Origin: Acidobacteriota bacterium
GTDB taxonomy: Bacteria; Acidobacteriota; Vicinamibacteria; Marinacidobacterales; Marinacidobacteraceae
DNA length: 64,000 nucleotides
Reading direction: 5' to 3'
Assembly (NCBI GenBank): GCA_009840635.1
Contig: VXNL01000079.1
Span: 3,782-67,781, forward strand
In this document: positions 7,956 to 40,094 of the stretch, piece after piece
Numbering within the stretch: the first letter of the stretch is position 1
Layout: every line of letters begins with the position of its first letter
The notes under the pieces: model-generated
Seen by the model: only the letters and a program-made list of their open reading frames with translations
What the model was told of the DNA's origin: nothing
Databases searched by the model: none
Made by a program: the position numbers and the translations under genes

Positions 7956-7975
7956 GGCGGGTCAACCCCGCGCCG

Positions 7976-8026
7976 TGCGCGGTGCGGAGCACCGCGGTGC
8001 CGGTCTGGAAACCGGCGTTCCAAGCC
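7976..8026 (-). repeat. REP-like element, family 1 (hairpin GCGGTGC-GGA-GCACCGC plus GTGCCGGTCTGGAAACCGGCGTTCCAAGCC)
   Basis: It lies in the convergent intergenic gap between the ALDH and tenA genes. The core ...CCGGCGTTCCAAGCC recurs at 26.1, 39.9, 42.7 and 49.2 kb. Confidence 0.7.
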
Positions 8027-8072
8027 GGCGCGCCATGCGGGCGCGGGGTATCCCCGTGCGGTTCCCGGGTCG

Positions 8073-19574: not shown

Positions 19575-19580
19575 CGCGTC

Positions 19581-19623
19581 GGAGCGCCGGCCTCTGGCCG
19601 GCATCGCGGCCCGGGAGGGCCGC
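19581..19623 (+). repeat. REP-like element, family 2 (GGAGCGCCGGCCTCTGGCCGGCATCGC plus GGCCCGGGAGGGCCG hairpin)
   Basis: It starts 7 nt after the PPOX stop. The same element occurs after stop codons at 20.6, 30.9, 32.9 and 39.8 kb. Confidence 0.75.
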
Positions 19624-19746
19624 GAAACGGGACCTCACTGCCCGCGCAGACGGCAGGAACGCGTCGGAGGATCGGCCTTCGGCCGGCCCGGCTTTCCATG
19701 GGTACGAAGCACCAGACGGGCTGGACGCCGAGGTGCCATCGTTTGT

Positions 19747-19773
19747 GGTATTTTTCTTACCATGGTAACTACC
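19747..19773. promoter_or_regulatory. Cluster of GGTA/TACC inverted half-sites, including the perfect palindrome TTACCATGGTAA over the vapB start codon; candidate VapB operator
   Basis: GGTA-N7-TACC, TTACCATGGTAA (19757-19768) and GGTA-AC-TACC are read directly from the sequence. They overlap the ATG at 19762. Confidence 0.5.
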
Positions 19774-20034
19774 ATAGATTCTGCCGGCCGGTTGGTCATT
19801 CCGAAGACGATCCGAGAAGCGGCGGGACTCGGAGCCGGTACACGGGTCCATCTGCGACTCGAATCCGACCGGGTGGTTGTGGAACCGGCGCCGCTTTCCG
19901 TAACCCTTGAGCAACGTGGGACGATGGTCGTGGCGGTGGCGCCTCCGGGAACGCCGCAAATGAAGGCGTCGGACGTTGCTCGCACGATCGAGGAACTGCG
20001 GGGGATGGATCCCTCGGCGGATCCGATGGCGTGA
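19762..20034 (+). CDS. vapB: AbrB/SpoVT-fold antitoxin
   Basis: IDSAGRLVIPKTIREAAGL...VVVEP is a looped-hinge-helix motif. Length is 90 aa. It overlaps the vapC start. Confidence 0.8.
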   Translation: MVTTIDSAGRLVIPKTIREAAGLGAGTRVHLRLESDRVVVEPAPLSVTLEQRGTMVVAVAPPGTPQMKASDVARTIEELRGMDPSADPMA

Positions 20035-20465
20035 CCCGTTACCTGTGCGACACCAGCGTCCTGGTCGCCTCCCTCTGCGACTGGCATCAGCACTACAGCC
20101 TTTCGCGTAACGAGATCCTTGGGCGAACTCAAGCTGGACAGGAACTCGTACTTGCGGCGCACTCGTTGGCCGAGACGTACGCAGTACTGACGCGGCTACC
20201 GGGGCACTACCGACTTCCGCCTGAGGCTGCCATCGCTCTCATTCAACGGAACTGGCTCGAGACGCCAACCATCCACCTCGATGGGCGCGAAGTCTGGGAT
20301 GCCCTGGGTGAGGCGTATCGTCAGGGAGCGACCGGGGGCCGAACGTACGACCTGCTCATCGCCCACTGTGCGATCAAGGCCGGTGCTTCCGCCTTGGTGA
20401 CCTGGAACCTTCGGCACTTCGCCGCCTTCGCAAACAGACTGAACGTCGTGACGCCAGCGGGTTGA
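20031..20465 (+). CDS. vapC: PIN-domain toxin
   Basis: It begins YLCDTSVLVA (acidic D). A Glu lies in the LAETYAVL region, followed by DLLIAHCAIKAGASALVTWNLRHF. The GTG start overlaps the vapB stop (GTGA). Confidence 0.8.
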   Translation: MTRYLCDTSVLVASLCDWHQHYSLSRNEILGRTQAGQELVLAAHSLAETYAVLTRLPGHYRLPPEAAIALIQRNWLETPTIHLDGREVWDALGEAYRQGATGGRTYDLLIAHCAIKAGASALVTWNLRHFAAFANRLNVVTPAG

Positions 20466-20593
20466 CTGGTGCCGAGTTCGCAGAGCGTGAGGGGGATGCG
20501 TCGGCGGGGAATCTCCCGGCTGGCGACGAATGTCCGCTCCGTCCGGCGGGCGTCTGCGGCGGCCGTGGAAGCCGGGGGCGCCTGGGTACGCAG

Positions 20594-20639
20594 TTTCGCC
20601 CGCCTTCGGCGGACGATGCCGGCCGGAGGCCGGCGCTCC
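20594..20639 (-). repeat. REP-like element, family 2, inverse orientation (GATGCCGGCCGGAGGCCGGCGCTCC) plus CCGCCTTCGGCGG hairpin
   Basis: Its reverse complement is GGAGCGCCGGCCTCCGGCCGGCATC. It lies 13 nt downstream of the minus-strand SDR stop. Confidence 0.7.
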
Positions 20640-20652
20640 GAATCGGCGTTCC

Positions 20653-21381
20653 CTATCCGGGGGCGTCCACGACGGAGCCGCTCATCGAAGCTGGGGCCTC
20701 ACTGCCGAGCCAGACGATGACGTCGGCCACCGCCTCGGGCGCGGACCGCGGTTTGGCGCCGGGTATGGCGGTTCGATAGGACTCGGTATCCACTGACCCG
20801 GGACAGACGGCGAAGACCGAGATCCCGGCCGGCCGCAGCTCCTCCGCGGCAGCCTTGGTGAGGCCCACGACGCCCCACTTGGAGGCGCAGTAGGCGGCGA
20901 GGCGGGGTGCGCCGATCCGTCCGGCCATGGCCGCGAGGTTCACGATGCGGCCTTGCCGCCGCTCGATCATGCCGGGGAGCACGGCGCGGGTGCAGAGGAA
21001 CGTCCCCTTCAGGTTTACGCCGAGAACGCTGTCGAAGTCCGCATCGGACGTCGAGGTCAACGGGGCCCGGTGGACGGCGCCGGCGGCGTTGACCAGCAGC
21101 TCGACGGGACCCAGGCGGCGCTCCGTCTCCTGCACGAGTTCGGCGACCTGACCCGGCTCGGTGACGTCAGTCGGCGCCACAAACGCGTGGCCGCCCGCCT
21201 GGCGAATCCGGTTCTGCACGGCAACCAGCCCCACCGGACGCCGCGCCGCGATGCCGACGGCGAAACCGCGTTCGACCAGTTTCAGCGCCGTGGCCGCTCC
21301 GATCCCCTGACTCGCGCCGGTGACGATGGCTACGGATAGTCCGGCCGGGCCGGAGGCGGCAGGTTGCGCGGGCGCCGTCAT
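20653..21381 (-). CDS. Short-chain dehydrogenase/reductase (SDR)
   Basis: It has the TGASQGIG Rossmann motif, NAAG, and the YCASK catalytic Tyr-Lys. Confidence 0.9.
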   Translation of the reverse strand: MTAPAQPAASGPAGLSVAIVTGASQGIGAATALKLVERGFAVGIAARRPVGLVAVQNRIRQAGGHAFVAPTDVTEPGQVAELVQETERRLGPVELLVNAAGAVHRAPLTSTSDADFDSVLGVNLKGTFLCTRAVLPGMIERRQGRIVNLAAMAGRIGAPRLAAYCASKWGVVGLTKAAAEELRPAGISVFAVCPGSVDTESYRTAIPGAKPRSAPEAVADVIVWLGSEAPASMSGSVVDAPG

Positions 21382-21421
21382 CTCCGGCCGGCGCCGGGTT
21401 GGTGCGTCGGAAGCGCCTGGA

Positions 21422-21925
21422 TCAGACGCCGATCAGATGCGCGGTGACCGTGCGGTCGCGCGGCCCGTCCAGTTCCGCGAAGAGGATGCTCTGCCACTGG
21501 CCGAGGGTGATCTCTCCGTCGTGGATCGGCACCGTCACGTTGTGGCCCAGCAGCGTCGCCCGGAGATGGGCGTCGGCGTTCTTCCGCTCGCAGTCGGAGC
21601 AGTCCTCGCAGTTGTGGAGGTATCCGTCTTCCGGATCGGCCAGGCGCTCGAGGCACTCGGTGAGGTCGGCCATCAGGGCCGCCTGGAACTCGTTCAGGAA
21701 GAGCGCCGTCGTCGTGTGGAGGGTTGAAAGGATGAGGAAACCCGCCTTGATGCCCGACGCGCGGACCTGATCACGAACGCGGTCGCTGATGTTGTGCAGT
21801 TCCACACGGGAATCCGTCACCACTTTCAGCGTGCGATGCATGATCTTCATCTGCCCGCGGATCACCTCTTCCGTGGACTTCGCCGGTGCGGCCTTGACCG
21901 TCGGCTGCGTCAGTACGCTTTGCAT
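21422..21925 (-). CDS. yjbQ: YjbQ/UPF0047 family protein (secondary thiamine-phosphate synthase-like)
   Basis: It contains LSTLHTTTALFLNEF, ADPEDGYLHN and DAHLRATLLGHNVTVPI. An SD AAGGAG lies 4-7 nt upstream of the tandem ATGATG at 21923-21928. The track ORF extension beyond this is antisense noise. Confidence 0.75.
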   Translation of the reverse strand: MQSVLTQPTVKAAPAKSTEEVIRGQMKIMHRTLKVVTDSRVELHNISDRVRDQVRASGIKAGFLILSTLHTTTALFLNEFQAALMADLTECLERLADPEDGYLHNCEDCSDCERKNADAHLRATLLGHNVTVPIHDGEITLGQWQSILFAELDGPRDRTVTAHLIGV

Positions 21926-22108
21926 CATGAACTCCTTGACCCGAGCCGCTCGGCGCCGATCCGGGACCGCCGCGAGCAGGCGGAGAGCCAGTATACCAAG
22001 CACAACCGGGTGCAAACGCCAGCTCAGCCTCGGTCCGGCGCCGGGGGGCTGGGATACTCCCATCGGCGCCCGCGCCACGGAATCCGCCCGGATGCGACCC
22101 TGTCCCTG

Positions 22109-23557
22109 ATGGAAGCTCTCGCCGCTGAACTCCGCCCGCTCCTCGGGAAACACGGGTTTCTGCTGCGGCCGGAGCACACCCTTCCCTACGAGTGCGACGG
22201 GAGCACTGCCTACCGGAGCCCGCCCCAGGCGGTGGCGCTGCCGCGTTCCACCGCCGAGGTCGCCGAGGTGGTCCGGGCCTGCGCCGCCGCCGGGGTCCCG
22301 TTTACGGCGCGGGGGGCCGGAACCGGCCTCTCCGGGGGAGCGACTCCGATCGAGGGCGGCGTGGTCATTTCCCTGGCCGGGATGAGCCGGGTCCTGGAGA
22401 TCAACCCCGGGGAGCGGACCGCGCGCTGCCAGACGGGGGTGGTCAACCTGGAGATCTCCCGGGCCGCCGCCCCGTTCGGACTCTTCTTCGCCCCCGACCC
22501 CTCGAGCCAATCCGCCTGCACGCTCGGGGGGAACATCGCCGAGAACTCGGGAGGGCCGCACTGCTTCAAGCTGGGGGCCACCACCTCGCACATCCTCTCG
22601 GTCACCGTGGTCCTCGACGACGGGGAGGTCGTGGTTCTCTCCGAAGATGACGCCGGCTATGACCTGCTCGGCCTCTTCGTCGGTTCCGAGGGCACCCTCG
22701 GGATCGCGACCGAGGCGACGGTACGGCTGCTGCCGGTTCCCGAGACCGTCGAGACCCTCCTCGCGCCGTTCGCCGGACTGGTTCCCGCCTGCGAAGCGGT
22801 CTCCCGCATCGTGGCGGCCGGCACCGTGCCGGTGGCGATGGAGATGCTCGACGCCGCCACCATCGAGGTGGTCGAGGCCGGGATCGGAGCGGGCTACCCG
22901 AAGGACGCCGGAGCGGTGCTGCTGCTCGAACTCGACGGCGCGAAACCGGCCGTCGCGCGCCAGCGCGCCGACGTGGACCGCATCCTCCAGGAGTGCGGGG
23001 CCTTGGAGATCCGGGTGGCGCACGACGCGGCGGAGCGCGAACTGCTCTGGCGCGGCCGCAAGTTCGCGTTCGGGGCCATGGGCCGCATCTCGACGGATCT
23101 CTACGTGCAGGACGGGGTGGTTCCGCGTTCGGCCCTCCCCGAGGCCATCGCCGAGGTCGAACGGATCGGCAAGCGGCACGACCTCCGGATAGCGAACGTG
23201 TTCCACGCCGGTGACGGCAACCTCCATCCCTGCATCTCCTACGACGGACGCGACGCGGACGAAAAGGCCCGGGTGATGGCCGCCAGCCACGACCTGCTCT
23301 CCCTCTGCGTGCGGCTCGGCGGGGTGCTTTCCGGCGAGCACGGGGTTGGGATCGAGAAGCGGGACTCGCTCGATCTGCTCTTCGGCGAGGACGACCTCGA
23401 AGCGATGCGCCGGGTCCGCGACGCCTGGAATCGGCAGGGGCTGTTGAACCCCGGGAAGATCCTTCCGGTCCGCGCCGGGTGCGGCGAGCCCCGGGCGGCC
23501 CTTCCGGACGGCGGCCTGCCCGGCCGGGTGGCCGCGATTCCCGGCGCCTGGATCTGA
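22109..23557 (+). CDS. glcD: Glycolate oxidase FAD-linked subunit GlcD
   Basis: It has an FAD-binding PCMH domain (RGAGTGLSGG) and a C-terminal FAD-oxidase domain. It is followed by glcE and glcF. Confidence 0.9.
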   Translation: MEALAAELRPLLGKHGFLLRPEHTLPYECDGSTAYRSPPQAVALPRSTAEVAEVVRACAAAGVPFTARGAGTGLSGGATPIEGGVVISLAGMSRVLEINPGERTARCQTGVVNLEISRAAAPFGLFFAPDPSSQSACTLGGNIAENSGGPHCFKLGATTSHILSVTVVLDDGEVVVLSEDDAGYDLLGLFVGSEGTLGIATEATVRLLPVPETVETLLAPFAGLVPACEAVSRIVAAGTVPVAMEMLDAATIEVVEAGIGAGYPKDAGAVLLLELDGAKPAVARQRADVDRILQECGALEIRVAHDAAERELLWRGRKFAFGAMGRISTDLYVQDGVVPRSALPEAIAEVERIGKRHDLRIANVFHAGDGNLHPCISYDGRDADEKARVMAASHDLLSLCVRLGGVLSGEHGVGIEKRDSLDLLFGEDDLEAMRRVRDAWNRQGLLNPGKILPVRAGCGEPRAALPDGGLPGRVAAIPGAWI

Positions 23558-24735
23558 TGGCTGGGACAGCGGCTCCGGCGAGCGAAGAGGGCGTTGGCCG
23601 GGCGCTCGCGGCGGCGTCCGAGGCGGGTGAACCGGTCGTCCTCCGGGGCGGCGGCACGCGGCTTGGGTTGGGAGCTCCGGCGCGAGCCAGCCGGATCGTG
23701 GATCTCGGCGGCCTGTCGGGCGTGATCGAGCACCACGTCAGCGACCTGACCGTCGAGGCCTGGGCGGGCACGACCGTCGGAGCGCTGAACCGCGAACTCG
23801 CGCCCCACCGGCAACTGCTCGCGCTCGATCCGCCGCTCCCGGAGCGGGCGACCCTGGGGGGCGTGATCGCCGCGGGCGATCCGGGGTTCCGCGTGTTCCC
23901 CGGCTCGCGGCCGCGCGATCTGCTGCTTGGCCTTTCCGCGGTGCTCGCCGACGGGACGCGCATCCGTTCCGGCGGACGCGTTGTGAAGAACGTGACGGGT
24001 TACGAGTTGACGAAGCTCTTCACCGGCTCGCTGGGGACCCTGGGGGCGATCACCCGGGTCACGCTGCGCCTCCGCGCGCTGCCAGAGGCCTCGCGCACGG
24101 TCGTCGCGGGCCTCCCGGTCTCTGACGCCGTGGATCAGTTTGCGGACCGGGTGCTGGCGGCCGCCGCCGCGGCGCCGGGTCCCGCGGCGGTCGCGGTGGT
24201 GCCGCCGGGGACGGGACTGCCCGGGCTCCCCGAAGACGGCGGTTTCCGCCTCGCGATCCGCTTCGAAGGACTGCGGGAGGAGGCGGCGATGCCGCCCGAA
24301 GGGGTGGCGACGGCGGCGGGAGGGGTCACCGTATTCCTCGGGGGTCCCGAGGAGGAGCAGTTCTGGGCGGGGGTCCGTGATTTCCCCGCGGTGGTGCCCG
24401 AGCGGGAGGGGGCGCTGGGCCTCGCCGTTCACGGCCCTCCCGGGGCCCTGCTGCGCACCGCCTGGAGACTCGCCGCCTTCGGCCCTCCGGTCGCCTTCCC
24501 CGATCAGCGGCACGCCATCGCGAGCATCCCGGCGGAGGACTTCGAGGCGGCGCTCGGTGCGCTTCAGGAGGAGCCGGACGTCTCCGCCGTCATCGAGACC
24601 GCTCCCGGTGACTGGAAGCGGAACCATCCGGTCTTTCACCCACCCCCTTCCGCGGCGGTCGCCGCGCTCTCGAGCCGAATCAAGGCGGCCCTCGATCCCG
24701 AGGGGATCCTGGCGCCCGGCCGCATGCCTTTCTGA
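23557..24735 (+). CDS. glcE: Glycolate oxidase FAD-binding subunit GlcE
   Basis: Its ATG overlaps the glcD stop (TGATG). It has an FAD_binding_4-like N-terminus (VVLRGGGTRLGLG). Confidence 0.85.
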   Translation: MAGTAAPASEEGVGRALAAASEAGEPVVLRGGGTRLGLGAPARASRIVDLGGLSGVIEHHVSDLTVEAWAGTTVGALNRELAPHRQLLALDPPLPERATLGGVIAAGDPGFRVFPGSRPRDLLLGLSAVLADGTRIRSGGRVVKNVTGYELTKLFTGSLGTLGAITRVTLRLRALPEASRTVVAGLPVSDAVDQFADRVLAAAAAAPGPAAVAVVPPGTGLPGLPEDGGFRLAIRFEGLREEAAMPPEGVATAAGGVTVFLGGPEEEQFWAGVRDFPAVVPEREGALGLAVHGPPGALLRTAWRLAAFGPPVAFPDQRHAIASIPAEDFEAALGALQEEPDVSAVIETAPGDWKRNHPVFHPPPSAAVAALSSRIKAALDPEGILAPGRMPF

Positions 24736-24769
24736 TGTGCCCGTCCCGCCTTTCGCATAGATTCGTCCC

Positions 24770-26041
24770 GTGACCCAACCGAGCGGCGGCGAGGCCCTCC
24801 GGATCTACGAGAAGACGCTCGCCTGTGTCCACTGCGGTCTCTGCCTGCCGGCGTGTCCCGCCTACGAGAACGCGCCGCGCGAGTCGCTCGCCCCGCGCGG
24901 GCAGGTCTTCAACGCCCGCGCCCTGCTGGAGGGCCGGCTGCCCGCGAGCGACGGCCTGGCGGAGGACCTCTACGAGTGCCTCGCCTGCCGCGGCTGCGAA
25001 AGCGTCTGTCCGGCGGGAGTGGAAGTCGGCGCCATCGTCGAGGGAGTCCGGGGGCTGCTGGACGAGGAAGCGGTCGAGCCGCGCCGGGTGCGGGTGCTGA
25101 AACGGTTCGCGCTCGGGGTGGTGGTGGCCCGGCCCGCGGTCCTGAAAGCGGCGATGTGGCTGCTCCGGTTTACGGGGCGCATCGGCCTTCGCCGGCTCGT
25201 GCAGCCGGTGCTGGCCCGCCTGGCGCCGAAGCTCGCGGCGCGGGAACGGTTGCTCCCCGACGTCCCGGCGCGGGAGCGTTTCCCGGCGCGGATCTCCCCG
25301 GGCGGCGAAGCGCGCGGGACGGTGGCGCTTTTCCTCGGCTGTGTCGCGCCGCATCTCCGGCCGGAAACCAGCCGGGCGGCGATCGAGGCGCTCGTCGCGA
25401 ACGGCTGGGAGGTGGTGATTCCCAGGGAGCAGGGATGTTGCGGCGCGCTCCATCTCCACGCCGGCCTGCCGGATCTGGCGCGGGGGCTGGCGCGCCGGAA
25501 CCTGGCGGCGTTTCCGGACGACCTTCCGGTGGTGACCACCGCCGCCGGCTGCGGCGCCGCGCTCTCGGAATACGGTGAGCTTCTGGACGCTGAACTACCC
25601 GCTGATGTTTTCTCGCGGCGGGTGACGGACGTCTCGGCGTTCCTCGCGGAGAGCGGCTGCCGCCCGCCCGCAGCCGGCCCCCGGGAGACGCCGCTGCGGG
25701 TCGTCTACGACGCGCCCTGCCATCTCTTCCACGCCCAGCAGGTCCGCGAGGAGCCGCTCCGGATCCTCCGCAGCCTGCCGGGCGTGGAGCTCGTCACCGT
25801 GCGTGACCCCGAGCGCTGCTGCGGCTCCGCCGGGATCTACAACGTGACCCGGCACGACACCTCAATGGCGGTCCTCGACCGGAAGATGGCGAACATCGCT
25901 CCCGCGGATCCCGACCTCATCGCCACCGGGAACATCGGCTGCCAGCTCCAGCTGGCCGAGGGCGCCCGGCGCGCCGGGATAAGCGCGGAGGTCGCCCACC
26001 CGGTCGAACTCCTCGCGGACGCCTACCGGCGGGAGAAATAG
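24770..26041 (+). CDS. glcF: Glycolate oxidase iron-sulfur subunit GlcF
   Basis: Two 4Fe-4S ferredoxin motifs are present (CVHCGLCLPACP and CLACRGCESVCP). It also has CCG domains (CCGSAG). A GTG start is used. Confidence 0.9.
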   Translation: MTQPSGGEALRIYEKTLACVHCGLCLPACPAYENAPRESLAPRGQVFNARALLEGRLPASDGLAEDLYECLACRGCESVCPAGVEVGAIVEGVRGLLDEEAVEPRRVRVLKRFALGVVVARPAVLKAAMWLLRFTGRIGLRRLVQPVLARLAPKLAARERLLPDVPARERFPARISPGGEARGTVALFLGCVAPHLRPETSRAAIEALVANGWEVVIPREQGCCGALHLHAGLPDLARGLARRNLAAFPDDLPVVTTAAGCGAALSEYGELLDAELPADVFSRRVTDVSAFLAESGCRPPAAGPRETPLRVVYDAPCHLFHAQQVREEPLRILRSLPGVELVTVRDPERCCGSAGIYNVTRHDTSMAVLDRKMANIAPADPDLIATGNIGCQLQLAEGARRAGISAEVAHPVELLADAYRREK

Positions 26042-26070
26042 GGAACCCCCGCGGTGGAGAATCGCGCGAC

Positions 26071-26117
26071 GGCTTGGAACGCCGGCTTCAGCCGGCACAG
26101 CCCGCCGAAGGCGGGCG
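26071..26117 (+). repeat. REP-like element, family 1 (GGCTTGGAACGCCGGCTTCAGCCGGCACAGC plus CCGCCGAAGGCGGG hairpin)
   Basis: This is the left arm of an inverted doublet with the copy at 26190-26235. Confidence 0.8.
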
Positions 26118-26189
26118 GCGAGACGGACCTCATTCGCCGGGATGACTCGGCTGCATGCGCCAATAAACCCGGGGTAGCGACGAACCGCC

Positions 26190-26235
26190 GCGGCCCTGCG
26201 GGCCGCTGTGCCGGCTGAAGCCGGCGTTCCAAGCC
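26190..26235 (-). repeat. REP-like element, family 1, inverse copy (GGCCCTGCGGGCC hairpin plus GTGCCGGCTGAAGCCGGCGTTCCAAGCC)
   Basis: It is the reverse complement of the unit at 39854-39900. The right arm of the doublet lies about 70 bp from the left arm. Confidence 0.8.
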
Positions 26236-26248
26236 GCTGCGCCCGGTA

Positions 26249-27811
26249 CTACCGCCCCTTTCGCGGCAGCTTCTCGTCCGCCATCGCCGCGTGGTAGACG
26301 AACGCCGCGACCACCACCGCGTTCTTCTTGAGGTCGTCGATCGGCAGGGTGTCGTAGAAGTCGAGGTTCGTGTGGCCGCCGGTGCCGCCGACCCGCGCCT
26401 GCAGGAACTGGAAGCCCGGCAGGCCCGCGTCGTCGAACGCCACGTGGTCGGTGCTGCCCACGCTGGCGGGCGCCAGCGTCGTCATCCCGAAGTCGTGGAA
26501 CGGCGCCATCCACGCTTCGAAGATCGGCCGCACGTGCTCGTTCTCCTGGAGCCAGACGCCCCGGTAGCGGCCGGGGCCGTAGTCCTGGTTGAAGTACGCG
26601 GAGACGTTGTCGTAGCCGGGTTTCGTCCCCGTCTCGGGGTCGCCGAAGTGCTGCTTCACGTAGGCCCGCGACCCGAAGATGCCCTGCTCCTCGCCGGACC
26701 AGAGCGCGATCCGGATCGTCCGGCGCGGCTCGGCGCCGACCGCCTTCAGGATGCGCATCGCCTCCAGCATCACCGCCACTCCCGAGGAGTTGTCGCTGGC
26801 GTTCGGGCTCGCGTGCCAGGTGTCGAAGTGGGCGCCCAGCATCACCAGCTCGTGGGCGAGGTCGGTCCCCGCGATCTCGCCCAGGACGTTCCGGGCCTCG
26901 CTCGCCGCCTCGCCGTGCCGGTTCCGGACCTCGAGCTCGATGGTGACGGGGACTTCGCGCCGCCGGATCCGGTACATCCGGTTGTAGTGCTCCGGGGTGA
27001 CCGCGATGATCGGCACCGAAGACAGGGTCGCCTCCCTGTCCCACATGTCCACCTTGGCGCCGGGGCGGGCGAACCCGCGCACCGCGCCCGGCCAGCCGCT
27101 CCGTGACTCGAGTACTGCGGCGGCTCCCTCGTCGACGTAGAACTGGAGTCGTTCGAAGGGGCTCAGGACGTCCGGGTGCGGCGGCAGGTCCGCGTACTCG
27201 CTCGTGAAGAGCGGGTCCGTCGCCAGCCTCGGCAGCACGTTCGCCGCGAGCTGCTCCATCGCCTCGTCGGTGCGTTCGGGCGTCCCGGTGGCGAAGCGGG
27301 TCCGGTCCACCGCCGCCGGGGGCGTCGAGAGGACCGCCTTGCCGTGGAGCTTCCCGCGCAGGGCGTCGAGGTCGCCCCGCGTCCGGACGTCGGCGATGAC
27401 GACCTCCAGCGTTTCAGGGCCTTCGGTCCCCGGCGTGTGGGCGATGGGGTAGCCGACGAGCGTCTGGTACACCGGCTCCCGCATGTGGAGCGAGAAGTAG
27501 TCGTTGTCCCAGCTCGCCCCGTAGTTCATGAAGGGCTCGCGGACCGTGTTCACGAGCCCGATCTCGGCCATCTCCTCGAGCAGCCACTGCTGGGCCCGGT
27601 CCATCGCCGCCGAGTTGGTGAGCCGGCCGCCGATCACGTCGGTCATGTAGGAGAGGGTGTCGGGAAGCTGCGACCGATGAAGTCCCTCCTCCCGGATCTT
27701 CGCGATCATCTCCCGGTCCACGGGGAAGGGATCCTGGGCCGCGGCGGCGGTGGTGACGCCGAAGACCGCAGCCGCACCCGCGATCGACGCCCGGATCAGG
27801 TACTGCCTCAT
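26249..27811 (-). CDS. M28-family secreted aminopeptidase with PA domain
   Basis: It has a signal peptide and Zn ligands in the HFDTWHA...DNSSG and EEQG motif context. Length is 520 aa. Confidence 0.85.
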   Translation of the reverse strand: MRQYLIRASIAGAAAVFGVTTAAAAQDPFPVDREMIAKIREEGLHRSQLPDTLSYMTDVIGGRLTNSAAMDRAQQWLLEEMAEIGLVNTVREPFMNYGASWDNDYFSLHMREPVYQTLVGYPIAHTPGTEGPETLEVVIADVRTRGDLDALRGKLHGKAVLSTPPAAVDRTRFATGTPERTDEAMEQLAANVLPRLATDPLFTSEYADLPPHPDVLSPFERLQFYVDEGAAAVLESRSGWPGAVRGFARPGAKVDMWDREATLSSVPIIAVTPEHYNRMYRIRRREVPVTIELEVRNRHGEAASEARNVLGEIAGTDLAHELVMLGAHFDTWHASPNASDNSSGVAVMLEAMRILKAVGAEPRRTIRIALWSGEEQGIFGSRAYVKQHFGDPETGTKPGYDNVSAYFNQDYGPGRYRGVWLQENEHVRPIFEAWMAPFHDFGMTTLAPASVGSTDHVAFDDAGLPGFQFLQARVGGTGGHTNLDFYDTLPIDDLKKNAVVVAAFVYHAAMADEKLPRKGR

Positions 27812-27920
27812 GTTCGCCTCCGATCCGCGGCGTGGGCGCGGTCTGCGCGGGCCCGCGGGTCAGCGGAGAGGGTACTTTCGGGGCCGACACCGCCGGAATC
27901 GTGCGCCCTAGAATGGGTCG

Positions 27921-28544
27921 GTGAACGTGTCGCGGGACGCCGGTGAACGCGTGGCGGGGCCGTCGGGGACGGTTACCGCAGGCCGGCACATCCTGGGGAA
28001 GGGCCGCCGGCATGTCGCCACGGGCCGGACGACGGCCTTCCGGGCGGCCGTGTTCGGGATCAACGACGGCCTGGTCTCGAACACCGCGCTGATCCTGGGC
28101 GTGGGCGGGGCGACCGACGATTCCGGCTTCGTGCTGCTGGCCGGCGCCGCCGGCCTGATCGCGGGATCCCTTTCCATGGCGGCCGGGGAGTACCTGTCGG
28201 TGCGGTCCCAGATCGAGATGCTGGAGAAACAGCTCGCGCGCGAGGAACTGGGGATCGGTCCCGGTGACGTGGATTCACCCTTTGCGGCCGCCATCTCCTC
28301 CTTCCTGAGCTTCGCCGTGGGCGCGGCCGTTCCGCTCCTCCCGTTCGCGCTGACAGGCGGGACGGCGGCGCTCGCCGCCGGGGCGTCGCTGGCGCTCCTG
28401 GCGCTGTTCCTTGCGGGCGCCGCCGCCAGTCTGTTCACCGGACGCGGCGCGGTCTTCAGCGGCCTGCGCATGGCCGCCATCGGCGGCGGCGCGGCGGCCG
28501 TCACCCACGCCGTGGGTCGCCTGTTCGGCGTCGCGATCGGCTGA
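27921..28544 (+). CDS. VIT1/CCC1-family iron/manganese transporter
   Basis: It has the FGINDGLVS motif, an MAAGEYLS motif, and five TM helices. Confidence 0.8.
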   Translation: MNVSRDAGERVAGPSGTVTAGRHILGKGRRHVATGRTTAFRAAVFGINDGLVSNTALILGVGGATDDSGFVLLAGAAGLIAGSLSMAAGEYLSVRSQIEMLEKQLAREELGIGPGDVDSPFAAAISSFLSFAVGAAVPLLPFALTGGTAALAAGASLALLALFLAGAAASLFTGRGAVFSGLRMAAIGGGAAAVTHAVGRLFGVAIG

Positions 28545-28644
28545 TTCGCCCGGTCCAGCCGTGCGCAAGCGTCCGGCCGGAGGACCCCGGTGATTGGTAG
28601 AATCCCGGGCTGTTTCGCGAGTCGTGCGTTGCCGTGAGGACTCT

Positions 28645-28662
28645 GGATCGGAGGACCGATCC
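28645..28662. promoter_or_regulatory. Inverted repeat GGATCGG-AGGA-CCGATCC upstream of katG; candidate regulator operator
   Basis: A 7-bp perfect inverted repeat with a 4-bp spacer, about 60 bp upstream of the katG ATG. TAGAAT lies further upstream at 28598-28603. Confidence 0.3.
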
Positions 28663-28668
28663 CGATAG

Positions 28669-30852
<2,184 letters not shown>

Positions 30853-30864
30853 ACGGTCCGCCTC

Positions 30865-30906
30865 GGAGCGCCGGCCTCCGGCCGGCATCGCCCGCGCAGC
30901 GGGCGA
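30865..30906 (+). repeat. REP-like element, family 2 (GGAGCGCCGGCCTCCGGCCGGCATCGC plus CGCCCGCGCAGCGGGCG hairpin)
   Basis: It starts 12 nt after the katG stop, in the convergent gap with the carbonic anhydrase gene. Confidence 0.75.
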
Positions 30907-30921
30907 AACCCGCAACGCCCC

Positions 30922-31611
30922 TCAGCGCGCGTCGGTCACCAGCCGCCGCCCGTTCAGCGGCTGCACCGGCCGGTTGTTTACGGGGAAGAGCGCGCGGAAC
31001 GCCTCGATCTGTTCCCGCGAAGCCGTCACCGGCTCGCTCATCATCAGCCAGGACACGCCCTCGCTGCACGGCGGCGTGGTCAGCGAACCCGAATAGCGCC
31101 AGGTCGTCCGCCGCTCGGGCAGCAGCGCGGCGGCGTCCACCGTCCCCGCAACCAGCGCGGCAGGTCCCGCCTCCGCCGGCACGTGACGCCAGACCGGAGC
31201 GAGGGCCTCGTTCGCTGCGCCCTCCTCGAGAAACACGCCGACCACGGCGAGCGCACCATCGGCGTCCTCGTGAACCAGGTGCAGTTCCAGCGGAAAGTCC
31301 GCGCCGTCCACGGTGTGCTCGCTCCGGTGGTGGAAATGAAACTGGGTCAGTCCGTAGCGCGTTCCGTCGAGGACGATGCCGCTCCCGGCCTGGTAGTCCA
31401 CCTGGATGGTGTGGCCGTTGTTCTGGATGGAGATCGGGCTCGGCGCGTACTCGAAGCCGATCTCCGACAGGGCTTCCCGTTCGGCGCCCGTGAGGTCGAT
31501 CGGCGACTGCTCGCGGCCGCCCGTGCACACGGCGAACGCGGGGTCCAGCGAACCCCAGTGGTCAGGGCCGAGCTCGCCCTCATATCCCCAGTGCGGCCCT
31601 CCGGCGATCAT
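30922..31611 (-). CDS. Alpha-class carbonic anhydrase
   Basis: It has the QSPIDL and FHFHHRSEH zinc histidines and SGSLTTPPC. No N-terminal signal peptide is present in the called ORF. Confidence 0.85.
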   Translation of the reverse strand: MIAGGPHWGYEGELGPDHWGSLDPAFAVCTGGREQSPIDLTGAEREALSEIGFEYAPSPISIQNNGHTIQVDYQAGSGIVLDGTRYGLTQFHFHHRSEHTVDGADFPLELHLVHEDADGALAVVGVFLEEGAANEALAPVWRHVPAEAGPAALVAGTVDAAALLPERRTTWRYSGSLTTPPCSEGVSWLMMSEPVTASREQIEAFRALFPVNNRPVQPLNGRRLVTDAR

Positions 31612-31723
31612 GACTGCGTTCCGTTCAACATCGGTCCTTCGTCCCGCTGCGTAGTGTGTAATTGATCGCCTCCGTGTCCACGTCCAGGTGTGGCCGGGTC
31701 ACTGGGGAAGGAGGGAAGGGGTC

Positions 31724-32860
31724 ATGATCGAGTGGCTCGGCATCGGCCACCTGCTGGAGCTTTCCGGAACGGAGGCGGTTCTGGGGTTTCTTACCCCCCT
31801 GCTGGTCTTCGTCTTCTTCTTCGTGGCGCAGCTCATCCTGCCGGGACGGTGGGTTCCCGGCTACGTCGTCGATCCGAAGACCGGTGAGCCACGGAAGTAT
31901 CGGCTGAACGGCCTCCTGGTGTTCGTCATCGCCCTGGTTGTGTGGGCCTTCGAGCTCACCGGCATGCCCCGCGACTGGTTCTACCGGTCTTCGCTCTACG
32001 CCGTCGCCGGGGGAACCCTCCTCACCATCATCTTCACGATCCTCGCGGTGTTCAGCCAGCCGGAAGGCAGGGTCAAGAACCGGTTCCTGGCGTGGTGGTT
32101 CGGGCGGGCGCAGGAGCTGCAGTTCTTCAACCACCGCTTCGACGTGAAGATGTGGTTCTACGTCGTCGGCGGGACGATGCTGTCGCTGAACGCCCTGTCG
32201 GGGGCCGTCTACCACTATGAACTCTTCGGCGAGAACTCCAATCCGGGCGTCTTCGTGTACGCGGGGTTCTTCACGTTCTACGTGCTGGACTACTTCGTCT
32301 TCGAGCGCGTCCAGCTCTACACCTACGACCTGATCCACGAGAACGTCGGTTTCAAGCTCTTCTGGGGCGGCCTCATCGTCTACGGCTGGATGTTCATCCT
32401 CCCGCTCTGGGGCATGGCCGTCTACCCGCATCCGGGATTCTCGCCGGCGGCGACGAACGCTTGGCTCATCGGGACGGTGGCGATGTTCCTCTTCGGGTGG
32501 GGCATCTCGCGCGGCGCCAACCTGCAGAAGTACACGTTCAAGCGCTGGCCCGACCGCACGTTCCTGGGCATCGAGCCCGAGGTCATCGAGGCCGGCGACC
32601 GCAGGATCCTGTGCAGCGGTTTCTGGGGCGTCGCCCGTCACTTCAACTACCTGGGCGAGGGATTTCTGGGGCTGTCGATCGCCCTGATCTTCGGCCACTT
32701 CACAAACTTCTGGGCCTGGACCTACTTCATCTTCGTCGTCTCGATGTTCACCTACCGCCAACGGGACGACGACGCGCACTGCGCCCAGAAATACGGCCCC
32801 GAGAAGTGGGCGGAGTACCAGGCACGGGTGAAGTACCGGATCGTCCCCGGGATCTACTGA
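31724..32860 (+). CDS. ERG4/ERG24/DHCR7-family sterol reductase homolog
   Basis: Sterol reductase signature 2 is present (LCSGFWGVARHFNYLGE), as is the GANLQKYTFKRWPD motif. It is a polytopic membrane protein of 378 aa. An RBS GGAAGGGAGG lies upstream of ATG 31724. Confidence 0.8.
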   Translation: MIEWLGIGHLLELSGTEAVLGFLTPLLVFVFFFVAQLILPGRWVPGYVVDPKTGEPRKYRLNGLLVFVIALVVWAFELTGMPRDWFYRSSLYAVAGGTLLTIIFTILAVFSQPEGRVKNRFLAWWFGRAQELQFFNHRFDVKMWFYVVGGTMLSLNALSGAVYHYELFGENSNPGVFVYAGFFTFYVLDYFVFERVQLYTYDLIHENVGFKLFWGGLIVYGWMFILPLWGMAVYPHPGFSPAATNAWLIGTVAMFLFGWGISRGANLQKYTFKRWPDRTFLGIEPEVIEAGDRRILCSGFWGVARHFNYLGEGFLGLSIALIFGHFTNFWAWTYFIFVVSMFTYRQRDDDAHCAQKYGPEKWAEYQARVKYRIVPGIY

Positions 32861-32864
32861 GCTT

Positions 32865-32909
32865 GGAGCGCCGGCCTCCGGCCGGCATCGCGGCCCGAGA
32901 GGGCCGCGA
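32865..32909 (+). repeat. REP-like element, family 2 (GGAGCGCCGGCCTCCGGCCGGCATCGC plus GGCCCGAGAGGGCCG hairpin)
   Basis: It starts 5 nt after the sterol-reductase stop. Confidence 0.75.
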
Positions 32910-33004
32910 TACCGTGAACGGCAGATGGAGCGAGTGGCGCGCAGGGTGGGACCGCCGGTCTGAAGGCCGCTACCGCGAGAACCGGCCGGCGGTCCCGGCC
33001 GCCC

Positions 33005-33976
33005 CTACGGCCTCAGGATCAGCTTGCCCATCGTGGCGCGGCCCTCGAGGAGGCGATGGGCCTCGGCGGCCTGGGCCAGGGGGAGTTCCCGGTCGATGGT
33101 GAGCTGGAGCCGGCCGCTCGCCACGCTGTCGAGGACCTCGCCGGCGCGCCAGCGGAGTTCGTCCGTGGTCGCCGCGTAGTCGCCGAGGGTGGGCCGGGTC
33201 ACGAACAGGGAGCCGTGCTGGGACAGCAGCAGCGGGTCGATCGGGGGCACCGGTCCGGATGACTGGCCGTAGAGGACGAGCATCCCGCGCGGCCGCAACA
33301 GACCCATGCTCTTCCGCCACGTCGTCTCGCCCACCGAGTCGTAGGCGACCGCCAGCCGCTCGACCCCGAGCTCCTCGCGGATCACCTCCGCGAAGTCCTG
33401 CTCGGTGTAGCGGATCACGGTGTCGGCGCCGGCGGCGAGCGCGGCCTTGGCCTTCGCTTCCGTGGACACGGTCCCGAAGACCCGAGCTCCGAGCGCGCGG
33501 CACATCTGGCAGAGCAGCAGTCCCATGCCGCCCGCCGCCGCGTGGACCAGCACCGGCATCCCGGACTGCACCCGGAACGTCGAGCGCACCAGGTAGTGGG
33601 CGGTCATCCCCTGGAGGAGTGCGGCGGCGGCCTGGTCGGTGGAGACCCCGTCCGGAAGCCGGACGAGCTTCGCCGCGGGGCGGACCGCCGCTTCGGCGTA
33701 GCTGCCCATCTGCATCACCCAGCCGACCCGGTCGCCGGGCGCCAGGTCCGAAACGCCCTCGCCAACGGCCTCCACGACGCCGGCGCCCTCGACACCCGGA
33801 GTGAACGGAAGAGGAATCGGATACAGCCCCGTCCGGTGGTAGGTGTCGATGAAGTTGACCCCGGCGGCCTCCACCCGGACGAGGGCCTCTCCGGCGCCGG
33901 GGGCCGCGTCGGGGGCGGAGCCGAGGCTCATGACCTCGGGGCCGCCGGGTTCCTGGATGCGGATGGCTTGGGGCAT
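33005..33976 (-). CDS. qor: NADPH:quinone oxidoreductase / zeta-crystallin (MDR superfamily)
   Basis: It has the GVNFID motif and a GAAGGMG Rossmann fold. Length is 323 aa. Confidence 0.85.
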   Translation of the reverse strand: MPQAIRIQEPGGPEVMSLGSAPDAAPGAGEALVRVEAAGVNFIDTYHRTGLYPIPLPFTPGVEGAGVVEAVGEGVSDLAPGDRVGWVMQMGSYAEAAVRPAAKLVRLPDGVSTDQAAAALLQGMTAHYLVRSTFRVQSGMPVLVHAAAGGMGLLLCQMCRALGARVFGTVSTEAKAKAALAAGADTVIRYTEQDFAEVIREELGVERLAVAYDSVGETTWRKSMGLLRPRGMLVLYGQSSGPVPPIDPLLLSQHGSLFVTRPTLGDYAATTDELRWRAGEVLDSVASGRLQLTIDRELPLAQAAEAHRLLEGRATMGKLILRP

Positions 33977-34015
33977 GGGGGTCCTTTCGAGCGGCGCATC
34001 CTACAATTCGCCCAA

Positions 34016-35833: not shown

Positions 35834-35847
35834 AATCCCGACGCTTC

Positions 35848-37703: not shown

Positions 37704-37713
37704 GGAGCTTTCG

Positions 37714-38352
37714 GTGAGACCCGAAACCGCCAGCGCGGAGGCACCCGGGCCGGCCGTGGACCGCGAACGGCTCGCGTCGGCGGTCGAGGCGCTGCTCTTT
37801 TCCCACGGGGCGCCGGTCACGGGCGAACGCCTCGCCGAAGTGCTCGAGACCGGCCTGAAGGAGGTGCTCGCCGCCCTCGACGAGCTGGAGGTGCGGTATG
37901 CGGCCCTGGAGTCCGGGCTGCGGCTGGCCCGGATCGCGGGAGGCTTCCAGCTCACCACCCGGGCGGAATGGAAGGGCGCGATCGAGCGTCTCATCGCGCC
38001 GAAGCGGGAGCAGGCGCTGACCGAGGCGGCCCTCGAGGCGCTGTCCGTCATCGCCTACCGGCAGCCGATCACCTTGCCGGAGCTGAACGAGATCCGCGGG
38101 GTGAACTCCCACAGCGTGGTCACCACCCTCATGAAACACCGCCTGGTCCGCTCCCGGGGGCGCAAGCAGGTCGTCGGACGGCCGCTCCTCTACGGGACCA
38201 CGAAGGATTTCCTCGAGCGATTCGAGCTCGACCGGCTGGAGGACCTGCCGAAGCTCGGCGAATTCGAAGAGGCGCTGGCGTCGGCCGCGCCCGTTCCGAT
38301 GGAATCCGAAGTCGGGGAGCCTGGCGCCGATCCCGCCGAGGTCTCCGAATGA
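37714..38352 (+). CDS. scpB: Segregation and condensation protein B
   Basis: Winged-helix ScpB motifs are present (LEALSVIAYRQPITLPELNEIRGV). Confidence 0.8.
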   Translation: MRPETASAEAPGPAVDRERLASAVEALLFSHGAPVTGERLAEVLETGLKEVLAALDELEVRYAALESGLRLARIAGGFQLTTRAEWKGAIERLIAPKREQALTEAALEALSVIAYRQPITLPELNEIRGVNSHSVVTTLMKHRLVRSRGRKQVVGRPLLYGTTKDFLERFELDRLEDLPKLGEFEEALASAAPVPMESEVGEPGADPAEVSE

Positions 38353-39812
38353 CCGCCGAGCGGCTCCAGAAACTGATCGCGGCTGCCGGGATCGCCTCGC
38401 GGCGCGCCGCGGAACGGATGATCGCCGAGGGCCGGGTCACCGTGGACGGGGAGGTGGTCGGCGTTCCCGGGGTGCGCGCGGACCCGGCGCTCCAGGACAT
38501 CCGGGTGGACGGAGCCCGGCTCCGCAAGCTCGGCAAGCCCCGGCGCTACGTGATTCTCAACAAGCCCATCGGCCACCTGACGACCCGCTCGGACCCGGGA
38601 CGCCGTTCCACGGTGATGGATCTGCTGCCCCATTCGTTCCGCTCGCTGGTTCCGGTCGGGCGGCTCGACGGCAACAGCTCGGGACTCGTGCTGCTCACCG
38701 ACGACGGGGAGCTGGCGCAGCGGGTCACGCATCCGCGGTACCGGCTGCCGAAGACCTACTACGCCACCGTCCGGGGGCTTCCCGCCGAAGACGTGCTCGA
38801 GCGGGCGCAGCGCGGCGTCCGCGTCGATGGCGAGGGGCTGCGGCTCGACCAGGTCGAGGTCATCGCCCGTTTCCCGCACCGGGCGGAGTCGAAGCGCCGC
38901 GCGCGTCTCCGGGTCACCCTGCGGGGCGGGCGGAACCGGGAGATCCGGCGGGTGCTGAGCGTCCTGGGCCATCCGGTCCTCGAGCTGCACCGGACCCGGA
39001 TCGGCTCTCTCGCCGACACCGGGCTCACCCCCGGGGGCTGGCGCAAGCTGCGCGGCGACGAGGTGGACGAGTTGCGGGAGTTGATCCGGCGGTGCGCGGG
39101 CGAGCCGGCGGCGCCCGCCGAACCGGCTGATTCGGAACCGGCAGTTCCTGCCGCCCGGCCCGCGGCCGCGGCATTCGTGGTGGCGATCGACGGGCCGGCG
39201 GGGTCCGGCAAGACGTCCGTGGCGCGCGCGGTCGCCGAACGTTTCGAACTCGGTTACTTCAACACCGGGGCGTCGGTGCGCGCGGTGGCGCTCGCGGCGA
39301 TGCGGCAGGACATGGATCTCGACGAAGGCCCGTCCCTCAGGACCCTCGCCTTCCGGGTGATCCTCGATCCGGAAGGCCGCGTCTTCCTCGACGGCGAAGA
39401 TGTCTCCCAGGCCGTCCGCGCGCCCGAGGTCTCCGCCGGCGCCTCCCGCGTCGCCGTCCACCCCGAGCTGCGCGAGGTCCTGGTGGAGCGTTGGCGGCAG
39501 TTCGCGGCGGGCGGCGGCGTGGTCGAGGGCCGGGACATCGGCACTGTGGTCTTCCCCGAGGCGCCGGTGAAGGTCTTTCTGGACGCGCGGCCGGAGATCC
39601 GGGCCCGGCGCCGCTCCTCGGACGAGGGAGACCGCGACGTGGGCGCCGTCCAGTCCGAACTCCGCCACCGTGACCACACCGACTCCGGCCGGGCGGTGGC
39701 TCCCCTCCGCCGGGCGGAGGACGCCCACCATCTCGACACCAGCGACCTCACGCTCGAGGAAACGGTGGAGCGGGTGGCGGAACTGGTGGAAACGGCGCGA
39801 TCTCAAGCCTGA
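38349..39812 (+). CDS. In-frame fusion: S4-domain RluB/RsuA-type pseudouridine synthase plus cytidylate kinase
   Basis: The N-terminal half carries an S4 domain and a pseudouridine synthase catalytic region (VGRLDGNSSGLVLLTDDG). A Pro/Ala linker follows. The C-terminal half carries the Cmk P-loop (AIDGPAGSGKTSVARAVAERF). A single 487-aa ORF has no internal stop. Confidence 0.75.
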   Translation: MTAERLQKLIAAAGIASRRAAERMIAEGRVTVDGEVVGVPGVRADPALQDIRVDGARLRKLGKPRRYVILNKPIGHLTTRSDPGRRSTVMDLLPHSFRSLVPVGRLDGNSSGLVLLTDDGELAQRVTHPRYRLPKTYYATVRGLPAEDVLERAQRGVRVDGEGLRLDQVEVIARFPHRAESKRRARLRVTLRGGRNREIRRVLSVLGHPVLELHRTRIGSLADTGLTPGGWRKLRGDEVDELRELIRRCAGEPAAPAEPADSEPAVPAARPAAAAFVVAIDGPAGSGKTSVARAVAERFELGYFNTGASVRAVALAAMRQDMDLDEGPSLRTLAFRVILDPEGRVFLDGEDVSQAVRAPEVSAGASRVAVHPELREVLVERWRQFAAGGGVVEGRDIGTVVFPEAPVKVFLDARPEIRARRRSSDEGDRDVGAVQSELRHRDHTDSGRAVAPLRRAEDAHHLDTSDLTLEETVERVAELVETARSQA

Positions 39813-39816
39813 CGCT

Positions 39817-39900
39817 CCGAGCGCCGGCCTCTACTGCGCCGGGAGGCGCCGCCGGCTTGGAACGCCGGCTTCAGCCGGCACAGCGGCCCGCAGGGCCGCG
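39817..39900 (+). repeat. Composite REP: degenerate family-2 element (GAGCGCCGGCCTC...) followed by a family-1 unit (GGCTTGGAACGCCGGCTTCAGCCGGCACAGC plus GGCCCGCAGGGCC)
   Basis: It starts 5 nt after the rluB-cmk stop. It forms the left boundary of the low-GC island. Confidence 0.75.
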
Positions 39901-40094
39901 GGCGACGTGCCGTCATTTGCCTTGGGCGACTGAGGTCCGGGAACGTTCCGCCTGCTCGTTTGGACCGAGAGAAGCCCCTCTTCCGACAGGTCAGCGTTGC
40001 GACGCCATTGATTTATCGAATGTCCAGGACGGGTTCGAGTGTCCGAATGTCGATTCCCGTGTCGGAGACCTCCCGCGCGACGTGAGGCCAACAA

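Follow-up and report, generated by a model that had tools for sequence, protein, structure and literature searches.

What are the short GC-rich palindromic units that stand just behind stop codons in a 64,000-nucleotide stretch of an Acidobacteriota bacterium (contig VXNL01000079.1; the whole stretch is called the window here)? The initial annotation noted such a unit at five sites, and considered a factor-recognised transcription terminator, a stabiliser of messenger RNA (mRNA) 3' ends, or repetitive extragenic palindromic (REP) elements. Four of the sites contain intact units, at spacings close to those it gave, and the fifth is only a truncated relic. With a probability of about 0.82, these are four intact copies and one truncated copy of a REP-type repeat family of Acidobacteriota (Vicinamibacteria-like), and the family would be the cognate REP of a REP-associated tyrosine transposase (RAYT). 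The unit is not an intrinsic terminator.

Every unit consists of a 5' foot GGA(G/A)C, a first hairpin, a linker of 1-3 nt and a second hairpin. Hairpin 1 is near-invariant: GCCGG(C/T)N, a loop of TCC, TCT, TTCA or TCCA, and then N'(G/A)CCGGC. Hairpin 2 has 6-9 bp, and its stem varies by subfamily yet pairs in every copy. In the subtype seen at the five sites (family 2), hairpin 2 has the frame TCG...CGA, with AAC after it. Repeat finding and fuzzy motif search yielded further copies of the same architecture, which consist of TTGGAACGCCGGCTTCAGCCGGCACAGC and a hairpin (family 1). Hybrids of family-1 and family-2 parts exist.

The family-2 27-mer GGAGCGCCGGCCTCYGGCCGGCATCGC is exact at 19581(+), 30865(+) and 32865(+), and is seen with one mismatch at 20613-20639(-); 0.01 occurrences are expected by chance. 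The gap between the stop codon and the first base, read from the sequence, is 6 nt for the unit at 19581 (TAA ending at 19574), 13 nt for the minus-strand unit at 20591-20646 (stop at 20653-20655), 12 nt for the unit at 30865 (katG stop ending at 30852), and 4 nt for the unit at 32865 (ERG4/ERG24 stop ending at 32860). The neighbouring genes were identified with Pfam. The first of them had been labelled PPOX; it is of the pyridoxamine-5'-phosphate-oxidase (PNPOx) family (PF01243), not PPOX in the porphyrin sense. A second hairpin is present in all four intact units, while the stem quoted for it, GGCCCGrGAGGGCC, is found in only two; the other two stems are GCCCGC/GCGGGC and GTCCGCC/GGCGGGC. 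At the fifth site, nucleotides 39819-39832 are the exact 14-mer GAGCGCCGGCCTCT, comprising the 5' arm and the loop, which has five matches at one mismatch or fewer against 0.22 expected. Because the 3' arm and the second hairpin are missing, this copy is a truncated relic.

The family is larger than the five sites. With the covariance model R1, the window yields 11 strong copies, scoring 58-69 bits; the matches ranked next reach at most 24 bits and are shadows on the reverse strand. A twelfth copy, which is interrupted, is located at 32940-33004. Among the matches listed, R1 finds 78 further copies in 31 acidobacterial loci, 238 kb in total. Outside the window, over Acidobacteriota genomes that are mainly Vicinamibacteria, the total is more than 90 copies. 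In 52 aligned copies, 94.5% of the stated structure is paired, and both sides change in six of the nine hairpin-2 pairs. These 52 copies had been chosen for carrying a second hairpin, and this bias was checked on plain hairpin-1 matches. Of the 77 plain matches, 71 have a hairpin of 6 or more Watson-Crick pairs behind them, compared with 17% of random positions in the same loci. Single units, tandem arrays with periods of 80-114 nt and inverted doublets all occur, with about 10 inverted pairs in the loci. Folded as RNA, a family-2 unit forms a pair of neighbouring hairpins, with energies of -31 to -38 kcal/mol (z -2 to -4.3). On the foot-bearing strand, about 70% of the hairpin-2 loops are GNA or GNNA. 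This bias fits one functional strand, and does not separate constraint at the DNA level from constraint at the RNA level.

The link to transposases comes from other genomes. Searches by tblastn with E. coli RayT find Y1 transposases adjoining foot-hairpins (the foot plus hairpin 1) in a Gammaproteobacterium (L039), a member of the Hyphomonadaceae (L043) and a Verrucomicrobium (L102), the last with the gene bracketed on both sides. All three proteins match Pfam Y1_Tnp and contain both the HUH and the Y motif. Their alignment, used to scan metagenomes, gave 80 RAYT loci, 274 kb. Foot-hairpins lie within 400 nt of the RAYT gene in 38 of the 80, mostly as inverted pairs on both sides, and they stand inside the RAYT reading frame in L129, L132, L139, L149, L153, L173, L175 and L197. 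The 80 loci contain 115 perfect 7-bp hairpins with a GGARC foot, which have 35 distinct stems, TCC or TCT loops, and covariation at pairs 3, 5 and 7. Four control feet gave zero hairpins in the same loci.

The window's own family accompanies a RAYT gene in L199 (69% GC), where four R1 matches of 52-66 bits flank it. The protein passes NCBIfam NF047646 (REP_Tyr_transpos, REP-associated tyrosine transposase) with 94 bits against a cut-off of 80. Its homologues number roughly 7,000; one of them, P0151, is encoded in L203, which is taken as Vicinamibacteria chromosome OY821641.1, the source of L005, L006, L048, L068 and L078. In L199, L203, L205 and L206, the RAYT gene is bracketed by 4 to 17 R1 matches in inverted arrays (Table 1). 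The gene order dfp - RAYT - gmk - aminotransferase is common to L199, L205 and L206, as expected of a vertically inherited single-copy RAYT. The REP reading considered initially is thus borne out, since RAYT genes of related genomes are flanked by arrays of the same two-hairpin units. The RAYT gene that the initial annotation proposed to look for elsewhere in the genome was found in these four related loci, and none was found in the window. The upstream array of L203 opens, at 3385-3430, with about six copies of the heptamer GGGGAGC, like a reiterated foot.

A scan of a species-representative genome collection with the reverse complement of GGARCGCCGGC-N4-5-GCCGGCA gave at least 115 loci. Among the matches listed, two-hairpin units of the window type are seen in many Acidobacteriota metagenome-assembled genomes (MAGs), chiefly those labelled Vicinamibacteria. 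The window thus probably derives from an organism of this sort. The foot and hairpin 1, (C)TGGGAGCGCCGGC-N-TCY-N'-GCCGGC, are also seen in Verrucomicrobiota, Planctomycetota, Lentisphaerota, Bacteroidota, Chloroflexota and Proteobacteria, some of these genomes having only 42-55% GC. There they often form inverted pairs, and the seventh stem pair covaries. The motif GGAGCGCCGGC has no match in the searched literature except unrelated primers, nor in the supplements of PMC6006769. The family, with its GGAGC foot, two hairpins and acidobacterial host, is previously undescribed and is part of a cross-phylum RAYT-linked superfamily. The cross-phylum signature (GGAGC foot, 7-bp GC stem, TCY loop) tracks one RAYT clade. 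The REP/RAYT system, mostly studied in Proteobacteria, is hereby extended to Vicinamibacteria, which are abundant in soil and have few cultured members.

Where the units lie relative to genes was scored on 89 copies, the 11 in the window and the 78 in the 31 loci. Genes were called by a dedicated codon-usage caller trained on these loci, whose calls are exact only at 3' ends; the calls were spot-checked against Pfam and against those supplied with L117-L119. Only two of the 89 copies overlap a called gene. By type of spacer, 25 elements are in convergent, 32 in tandem and 13 in divergent spacers. Divergent promoter regions hold about 14% of the copies, two of them in the window (49115-49255). 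In convergent spacers, the orientation match with the upstream gene is true by construction, so that the one informative quantity is how the distances to the two stops compare. Therefore, the orientation of the nearest unit was scored for each gene 3' end.

The nearest unit is co-oriented with the gene in 44 cases and opposed in 16 (p = 4e-4). When the nearest unit lies within 12 nt of the stop, the counts are 24 and 2 (p = 1e-5). Between tandem genes, co-oriented units outnumber the others by 22 to 10 (p = 0.05). Hairpin 1 begins 1-18 nt after a co-oriented stop in 24 of the 89 copies. The claim that orientation matches the upstream gene in every case therefore holds as a statistical bias over the 89 copies, and three of the four intact sites are between convergent genes, where it could not be otherwise. 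Likewise, the strict stop-proximal placement claimed for the units agrees with the 24-to-2 count, but not with the opposed units among the 60 nearest or with the copies in promoter regions. Stop-proximal, sense-oriented placement is a strong tendency and not a strict rule, and tendencies of this kind are on record for other REPs. Of the subtypes, family 2 lies closest to stops: 10 of the 24 copies begin no more than 20 nt from a co-oriented stop, compared with 3 of 28 in family 1. Seven of the 24 family-2 copies face a gene start.

The stops directly before units are 15 TAG, 5 TGA and 3 TAA (n = 23), compared with 82, 101 and 20 in all called genes (the window and L005-L097). For a genome of 70% GC, the overall TAG share of about 40% is already high. 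The entire window has a weakly positive GC skew, and the units, 5 on the plus and 6 on the minus strand, follow the local genes. Because units of both strands track genes under one skew, replication-strand bias is insufficient by itself to explain their orientation, and it was set aside as the sole cause. In the window, the stem starts 11 nt (19586), 9 nt (32870), 17 nt (30870) and 18 nt (20634) after the stop, two of the four thus within 15 nt. Among the 11 gene 3' flanks with the strongest folding in the window, 7 are REP units; this is compatible with a role at mRNA 3' ends and is no proof of it.

Table 1. Repeat units in the window, and unit arrays beside RAYT genes in related loci.
Position	Strand	Feature	Neighbouring genes	Details
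7972..8028	-	Unit with covarying hairpin 1 (GCCGGT...ACCGGC)	Between convergent genes; 16 nt from opposed stop, 44 nt from co-oriented stop	63.7 bits
19574..19630	+	Family-2 unit	PNPOx-family gene 19173-19574	Foot GGAGC at 19581; hairpin 1 19586-19602; hairpin 2 19609-19630, TCGCGGCCC-GGGA-GGGCCGCGA, then AAC; 65.1 bits; fold -37.9 kcal/mol, z -2.8
19658..19700	+	Degenerate partial tandem duplicate (AACGCGTCGGAGGATCGGCCTTCGGCCGGC)		Repeat family D4, 83% identity over 30 nt; 12-bit partial R1 match
20591..20646	-	Family-2 unit	After short-chain dehydrogenase gene (20653-21381, minus)	Hairpin 2 TCGTCCGCC-GAA-GGCGGGCGA; 66.7 bits
26069-26123 and 26183-26237	+ and -	Inverted family-1 pair	Between convergent genes	Conserved centre; from repeat search and R1
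30858..30911	+	Family-2 unit	After katG TAG	Hairpin 2 TCGCCCGC-GCA-GCGGGCGA; 58.1 bits
32858..32914	+	Family-2 unit	After TGA of ERG4/ERG24 reductase gene	69 bits; fold z -4.3
32940..33004	-	Interrupted variant copy	8 nt after TAG of Zn-alcohol-dehydrogenase gene (33005-33976, minus)	Foot GGGAC; 19-nt insert in hairpin 1; without hairpin 2; weak 16-bit R1 match
39817..39850	+	Truncated family-2 relic	4-6 nt after stop of rluB-cmk fusion gene	
39852..39906	+	Complete family-1 unit	Abuts the relic	Foot GGAAC; GCCGGC-TTCA-GCCGGC; hairpin 2 GCGGCCC-GCA-GGGCCGC; 66.1 bits
42641..42695	-	Family-1 unit	Co-oriented with acyltransferase gene (42733-44310, minus); flanking genes tandem	62 bits; hairpin 1 begins 44 nt after acyltransferase stop
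49115-49169 and 49199-49255	-	Two tandem units	Divergent promoter region; lysE start about 49044 (minus), AMP-ligase gene start about 49311 (plus)	
L203, upstream of RAYT	+	Array of 6 units		85-nt period
L203, downstream of RAYT	-	Array of 11 units		80-nt period
L205 / L206, upstream of RAYT	+	Array of 4 units	RAYT 82% identical	
L205 / L206, downstream of RAYT	-	Array of 5 units	RAYT 82% identical	

Several facts weigh against a REP family with a cognate RAYT. By tblastn, neither the 64-kb window nor the initial set of acidobacterial genome loci contains a RAYT gene; because of this, the RAYT link for the window's own genome rests on repeat homology. The foot, GGAG(C) or GGAA(C), is fixed in position, and its second base is unlike that of the canonical GT[AG]G. 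An empty orthologous site was sought, but the three close relatives all carry units and the unit-free ones are too distant for an insertion site to be defined. Since no close pair of filled and empty sites was recovered, an individual insertion event or target site is not seen. The hairpin-2 variants recur between genomes as a few subfamilies, so that the covariation mostly separates discrete subfamilies and is weak evidence of ongoing structural selection. Stem mismatches are G·T in 8 and A·C in 5 cases, and the stems are too perfect to tell constraint on RNA from constraint on DNA. The roles of the units at the RNA level are themselves inferred.

The proximity to stops might arise at insertion. 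RAYT would prefer the non-template strand just 3' of stops, either with a TAG-containing target or with single-stranded DNA exposed where translation and transcription uncouple, and later selection would not be the cause. In favour of this, the peak is very sharp (24 copies 1-18 nt after a co-oriented stop, 2 opposed within 12 nt). In three genomes, units of different types adjoin one and the same TGAGC junction behind ERG4, TAG is in excess at the neighbouring stops (15 of 23, versus about 40% overall), and orientation tracks the local gene strand, not the replication strand (5 plus and 6 minus under a uniform skew). However, the spacing and sequence between stop and foot vary, leaving no defined target site, and many copies are found at 30-500 nt from the nearest stop or in promoter regions. 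The coupling known for Y1 transposases is to replication, not to translation. Besides, selection against promoter disruption, together with short intergenic spacers, would also cluster copies near stops. Stop proximity created by insertion is rather unlikely.

It can be speculated further that RAYT and REP place units just behind stops in the sense direction in a manner tied to termination, not to replication, and/or that the host has co-opted the units as a general mRNA 3'-end module replacing U-tract terminators. This too is doubtful. If true, a selfish repeat family would be the main determinant of 3'-end formation, and a Y1 transposase would have a target rule not described before. Whichever cause applies, the 24-to-2 bias offers a clean system for setting targeted insertion against selection for mRNA 3'-end function.

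Quite improbable is that the units are terminators selected by the host, either hairpin-only or factor-recognised, which replace U-tract terminators in a high-GC lineage and resemble one another through factor recognition and not through mobility. Their stop-proximal, co-oriented placement, their share of the strongest-folding gene 3' flanks (7 of 11), and the fact that four genomes all keep a unit behind the ERG4 stop, although the unit present there has been replaced, are all in its favour. So is the finding that canonical hairpin-plus-T-run terminators are not found at these gene ends. A consensus terminator scan of 19000-34000 gave 4 sites, all away from these gene ends, against 6.0 expected. 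The same results agree with the initial statement that the unit is no classical intrinsic terminator: (C)GAAAC or GATAC comes after hairpin 2, and a T-run is absent after every unit. The missing U-tract is also a point against a terminator function. Furthermore, about 14% of the copies are in divergent promoter regions, including 49115-49255, and of the 60 nearest copies, 16 run opposite to the gene. Long arrays surround a transposase gene, and in other phyla copies lie inside RAYT reading frames. Relatives with 80-84% identical orthologues are without the family, and a core signal is not expected to vanish in this way.

The least probable of these alternatives, that the units are structured small RNAs or 3'-untranslated-region-derived regulatory RNAs in which the first hairpin binds a protein and the second gives specificity, could account for the two stable hairpins with conserved single-stranded flanks, the covarying second stem and the prevalence of GNA or GNNA loops on the sense strand, but it is opposed by zero Rfam matches for the units even at E <= 5, by promoter-like sites not found in a consensus scan, by the occurrence of both orientations and of 80-114-nt arrays beside a transposase gene, and by second-hairpin variants that recur across genomes as a few subfamilies, as for propagating repeat lineages. 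In the window as a whole, Rfam gives no family at gathering score, and at E <= 5 only 3 chance matches to small nucleolar RNAs elsewhere. Integron attC sites and clustered regularly interspaced short palindromic repeats were also considered and rejected, given the housekeeping neighbours and the irregular spacing.

A REP-type family moved by a RAYT could work as follows. In the paradigm of E. coli TnpA-REP and of IS200/IS605, the Y1 transposase recognises a foot and a hairpin as single-stranded DNA. By analogy, the RAYT would recognise the foot and hairpin 1 on the top strand while it is single-stranded, and would cut and rejoin the unit strand, by which copies could be created, moved or removed. 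Copies are seen just after stops in the sense orientation, where they would accumulate and persist; this position would spare coding sequences and promoters. When transcribed, the unit is predicted to add two very stable 3' hairpins to the upstream mRNA. A likely effect is that the mRNA 3' end is shielded from exonucleases. Stems within about 15 nt of the stop might also interfere with terminating ribosomes, as described for REPs of E. coli.

The closest resemblance is to the REPs and bacterial interspersed mosaic elements (BIMEs) of the rayT/yafM REPtrons of E. coli K-12. Both are short GC-rich extragenic palindromes with a conserved single-stranded 5' foot and high copy number, in which singletons, tandem arrays and inverted doublets are mixed as subtype mosaics, mostly at the 3' ends of open reading frames (ORFs), and both include a Y1/HUH transposase gene bracketed by repeats. 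They differ in the foot (GGAG/GGAA here, GT[AG]G in E. coli) and in the number of hairpins, which is two here, one invariant and one subfamily-specific, in contrast to one imperfect palindrome. The RAYT here is only about 22-25% identical to E. coli RayT, and the host is an acidobacterium. In E. coli, ribosomes are stalled by REPs that lie no more than 15 nt from a stop (Liang, Rudd & Deutscher 2015, as cited in PMC12306157). The window units share with these a stable hairpin starting near the stop, but only two of the four are within 15 nt, and the likeness is known here from sequence.

According to Di Nocera et al. 2013 (PMC3733652), GTAG/CGTC-tagged REPs are mostly less than 20 bp from ORF 3' ends, in convergent or unidirectional spacers, and the ends of GTAG repeats can donate TAG stop codons. 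The S. maltophilia SMAG repeats and the GTAG/CGTC superfamilies resemble the present family in their opposite-orientation dimers, GCCGGCC-type stems and ends adjoining TAG stops (PMC3733652), although the tag here is neither GTAG nor CGTC. As in the REPINs (REP doublets forming hairpins) of Pseudomonas (Bertels & Rainey 2011, PMC3116915), an inverted doublet folds into one long hairpin (window 26060-26245), and the RAYT is single-copy in a conserved chromosomal position (L199, L205, L206). In contrast to these REPINs, the four intact family-2 copies of the window are singletons, and direct-repeat arrays are common.

Among RAYTs, those found here resemble subclass 2.4 (Quentin et al. 2018, PMC6006769), which is group 4 of Bertels; the assignment is by motifs alone. 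Shared are NHVH, YIENNP or YIxNNP, a length of about 190-235 aa, occurrence in many phyla, and REP copies inside the RAYT ORF in several loci. REPs inside the RAYT gene are described as unique to subclass 2.4 (Quentin et al. 2018, PMC6006769). Here the conserved W is followed by D, E, L or M, not by Q, and the published cognate REPs of the subclass have GT[AG]G or "double" feet (PMC6006769), unlike those described here.

Orthologous sites show how quickly the units change. The ERG4 proteins of L117, L118 and L119 are 95%, 94% and 84% identical to that of the window, and units are kept after the katG and/or ERG4 stops. These units differ from those in the window in number (one versus two or three), in hairpin-1 subtype and in hairpin 2. 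L200-L202, with 80-84% identical ERG4 and 59-67% GC, have zero copies in 50 kb and unrelated sequence after the ERG4 stop. Because orthologous units differ and L200-L202 are without copies, the repeats are lineage-specific and evolve fast relative to the flanking genes. In the 95%-identical relative L117, an IS3-family transposase gene (HTH_Tnp_1 + rve; 4325-5470) stands downstream of the repeat cluster at ERG4, in the place that the Zn-alcohol-dehydrogenase gene occupies in the window. REP clusters are known as targets of insertion sequences.

Further features of the window concern single copies. The inverted pair at 26069-26237 is a REPIN/BIME-like doublet: each arm is co-oriented with its nearer gene, and 26060-26245 folds as one long stem of -78 kcal/mol as DNA (z -9.3). 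The unit at 30858-30911 occupies the whole 69-nt spacer between katG and a convergent carbonic anhydrase gene (stop at 30922). The degenerate copy at 19658-19700 lies 85 nt downstream of the original family-2 unit and repeats its 5' half together with the stop-codon flank, which suggests local slippage or unequal recombination. The insert of the interrupted copy at 32940-33004 is CGGTTCTCGCGGTAGCGGC, and the same insert type is seen in L074 at 4203-4277.

In L102 (1111-2282) and L043 (442-1056), the repeats appear in ORF listings as recurring pseudo-peptides such as GSAGILPA, AGRMPALP and AGWKPAV; AGKMPALP is another such peptide. Such repeat-derived pseudo-peptides are a likely source of spurious hypothetical proteins in MAG annotation, and knowing the family helps gene calling as well as the binning and assembly of high-GC MAGs.

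Around the relic, the plus-strand ORF at 37968-39812 joins an S4/pseudouridine-synthase (RluB-like) part to a cytidylate kinase, and the codon-based caller split it at 38349-38352; it may be a true fusion or two overlapping genes. Beside the cluster of the relic and the family-1 unit, 39906-40749 (0.85 kb) has lower GC and no recognisable gene. Pfam searches of the ORFs in the gene-poor 39.9-41.3 kb gave only a DUF4411 protein and no transposase. The window also contains toxin-antitoxin-like modules, namely a PIN-domain gene at 20031-20465 (+) and a pair of DUF4411 and ImmA/IrrE M78 peptidase genes at 40749-42451 (-).

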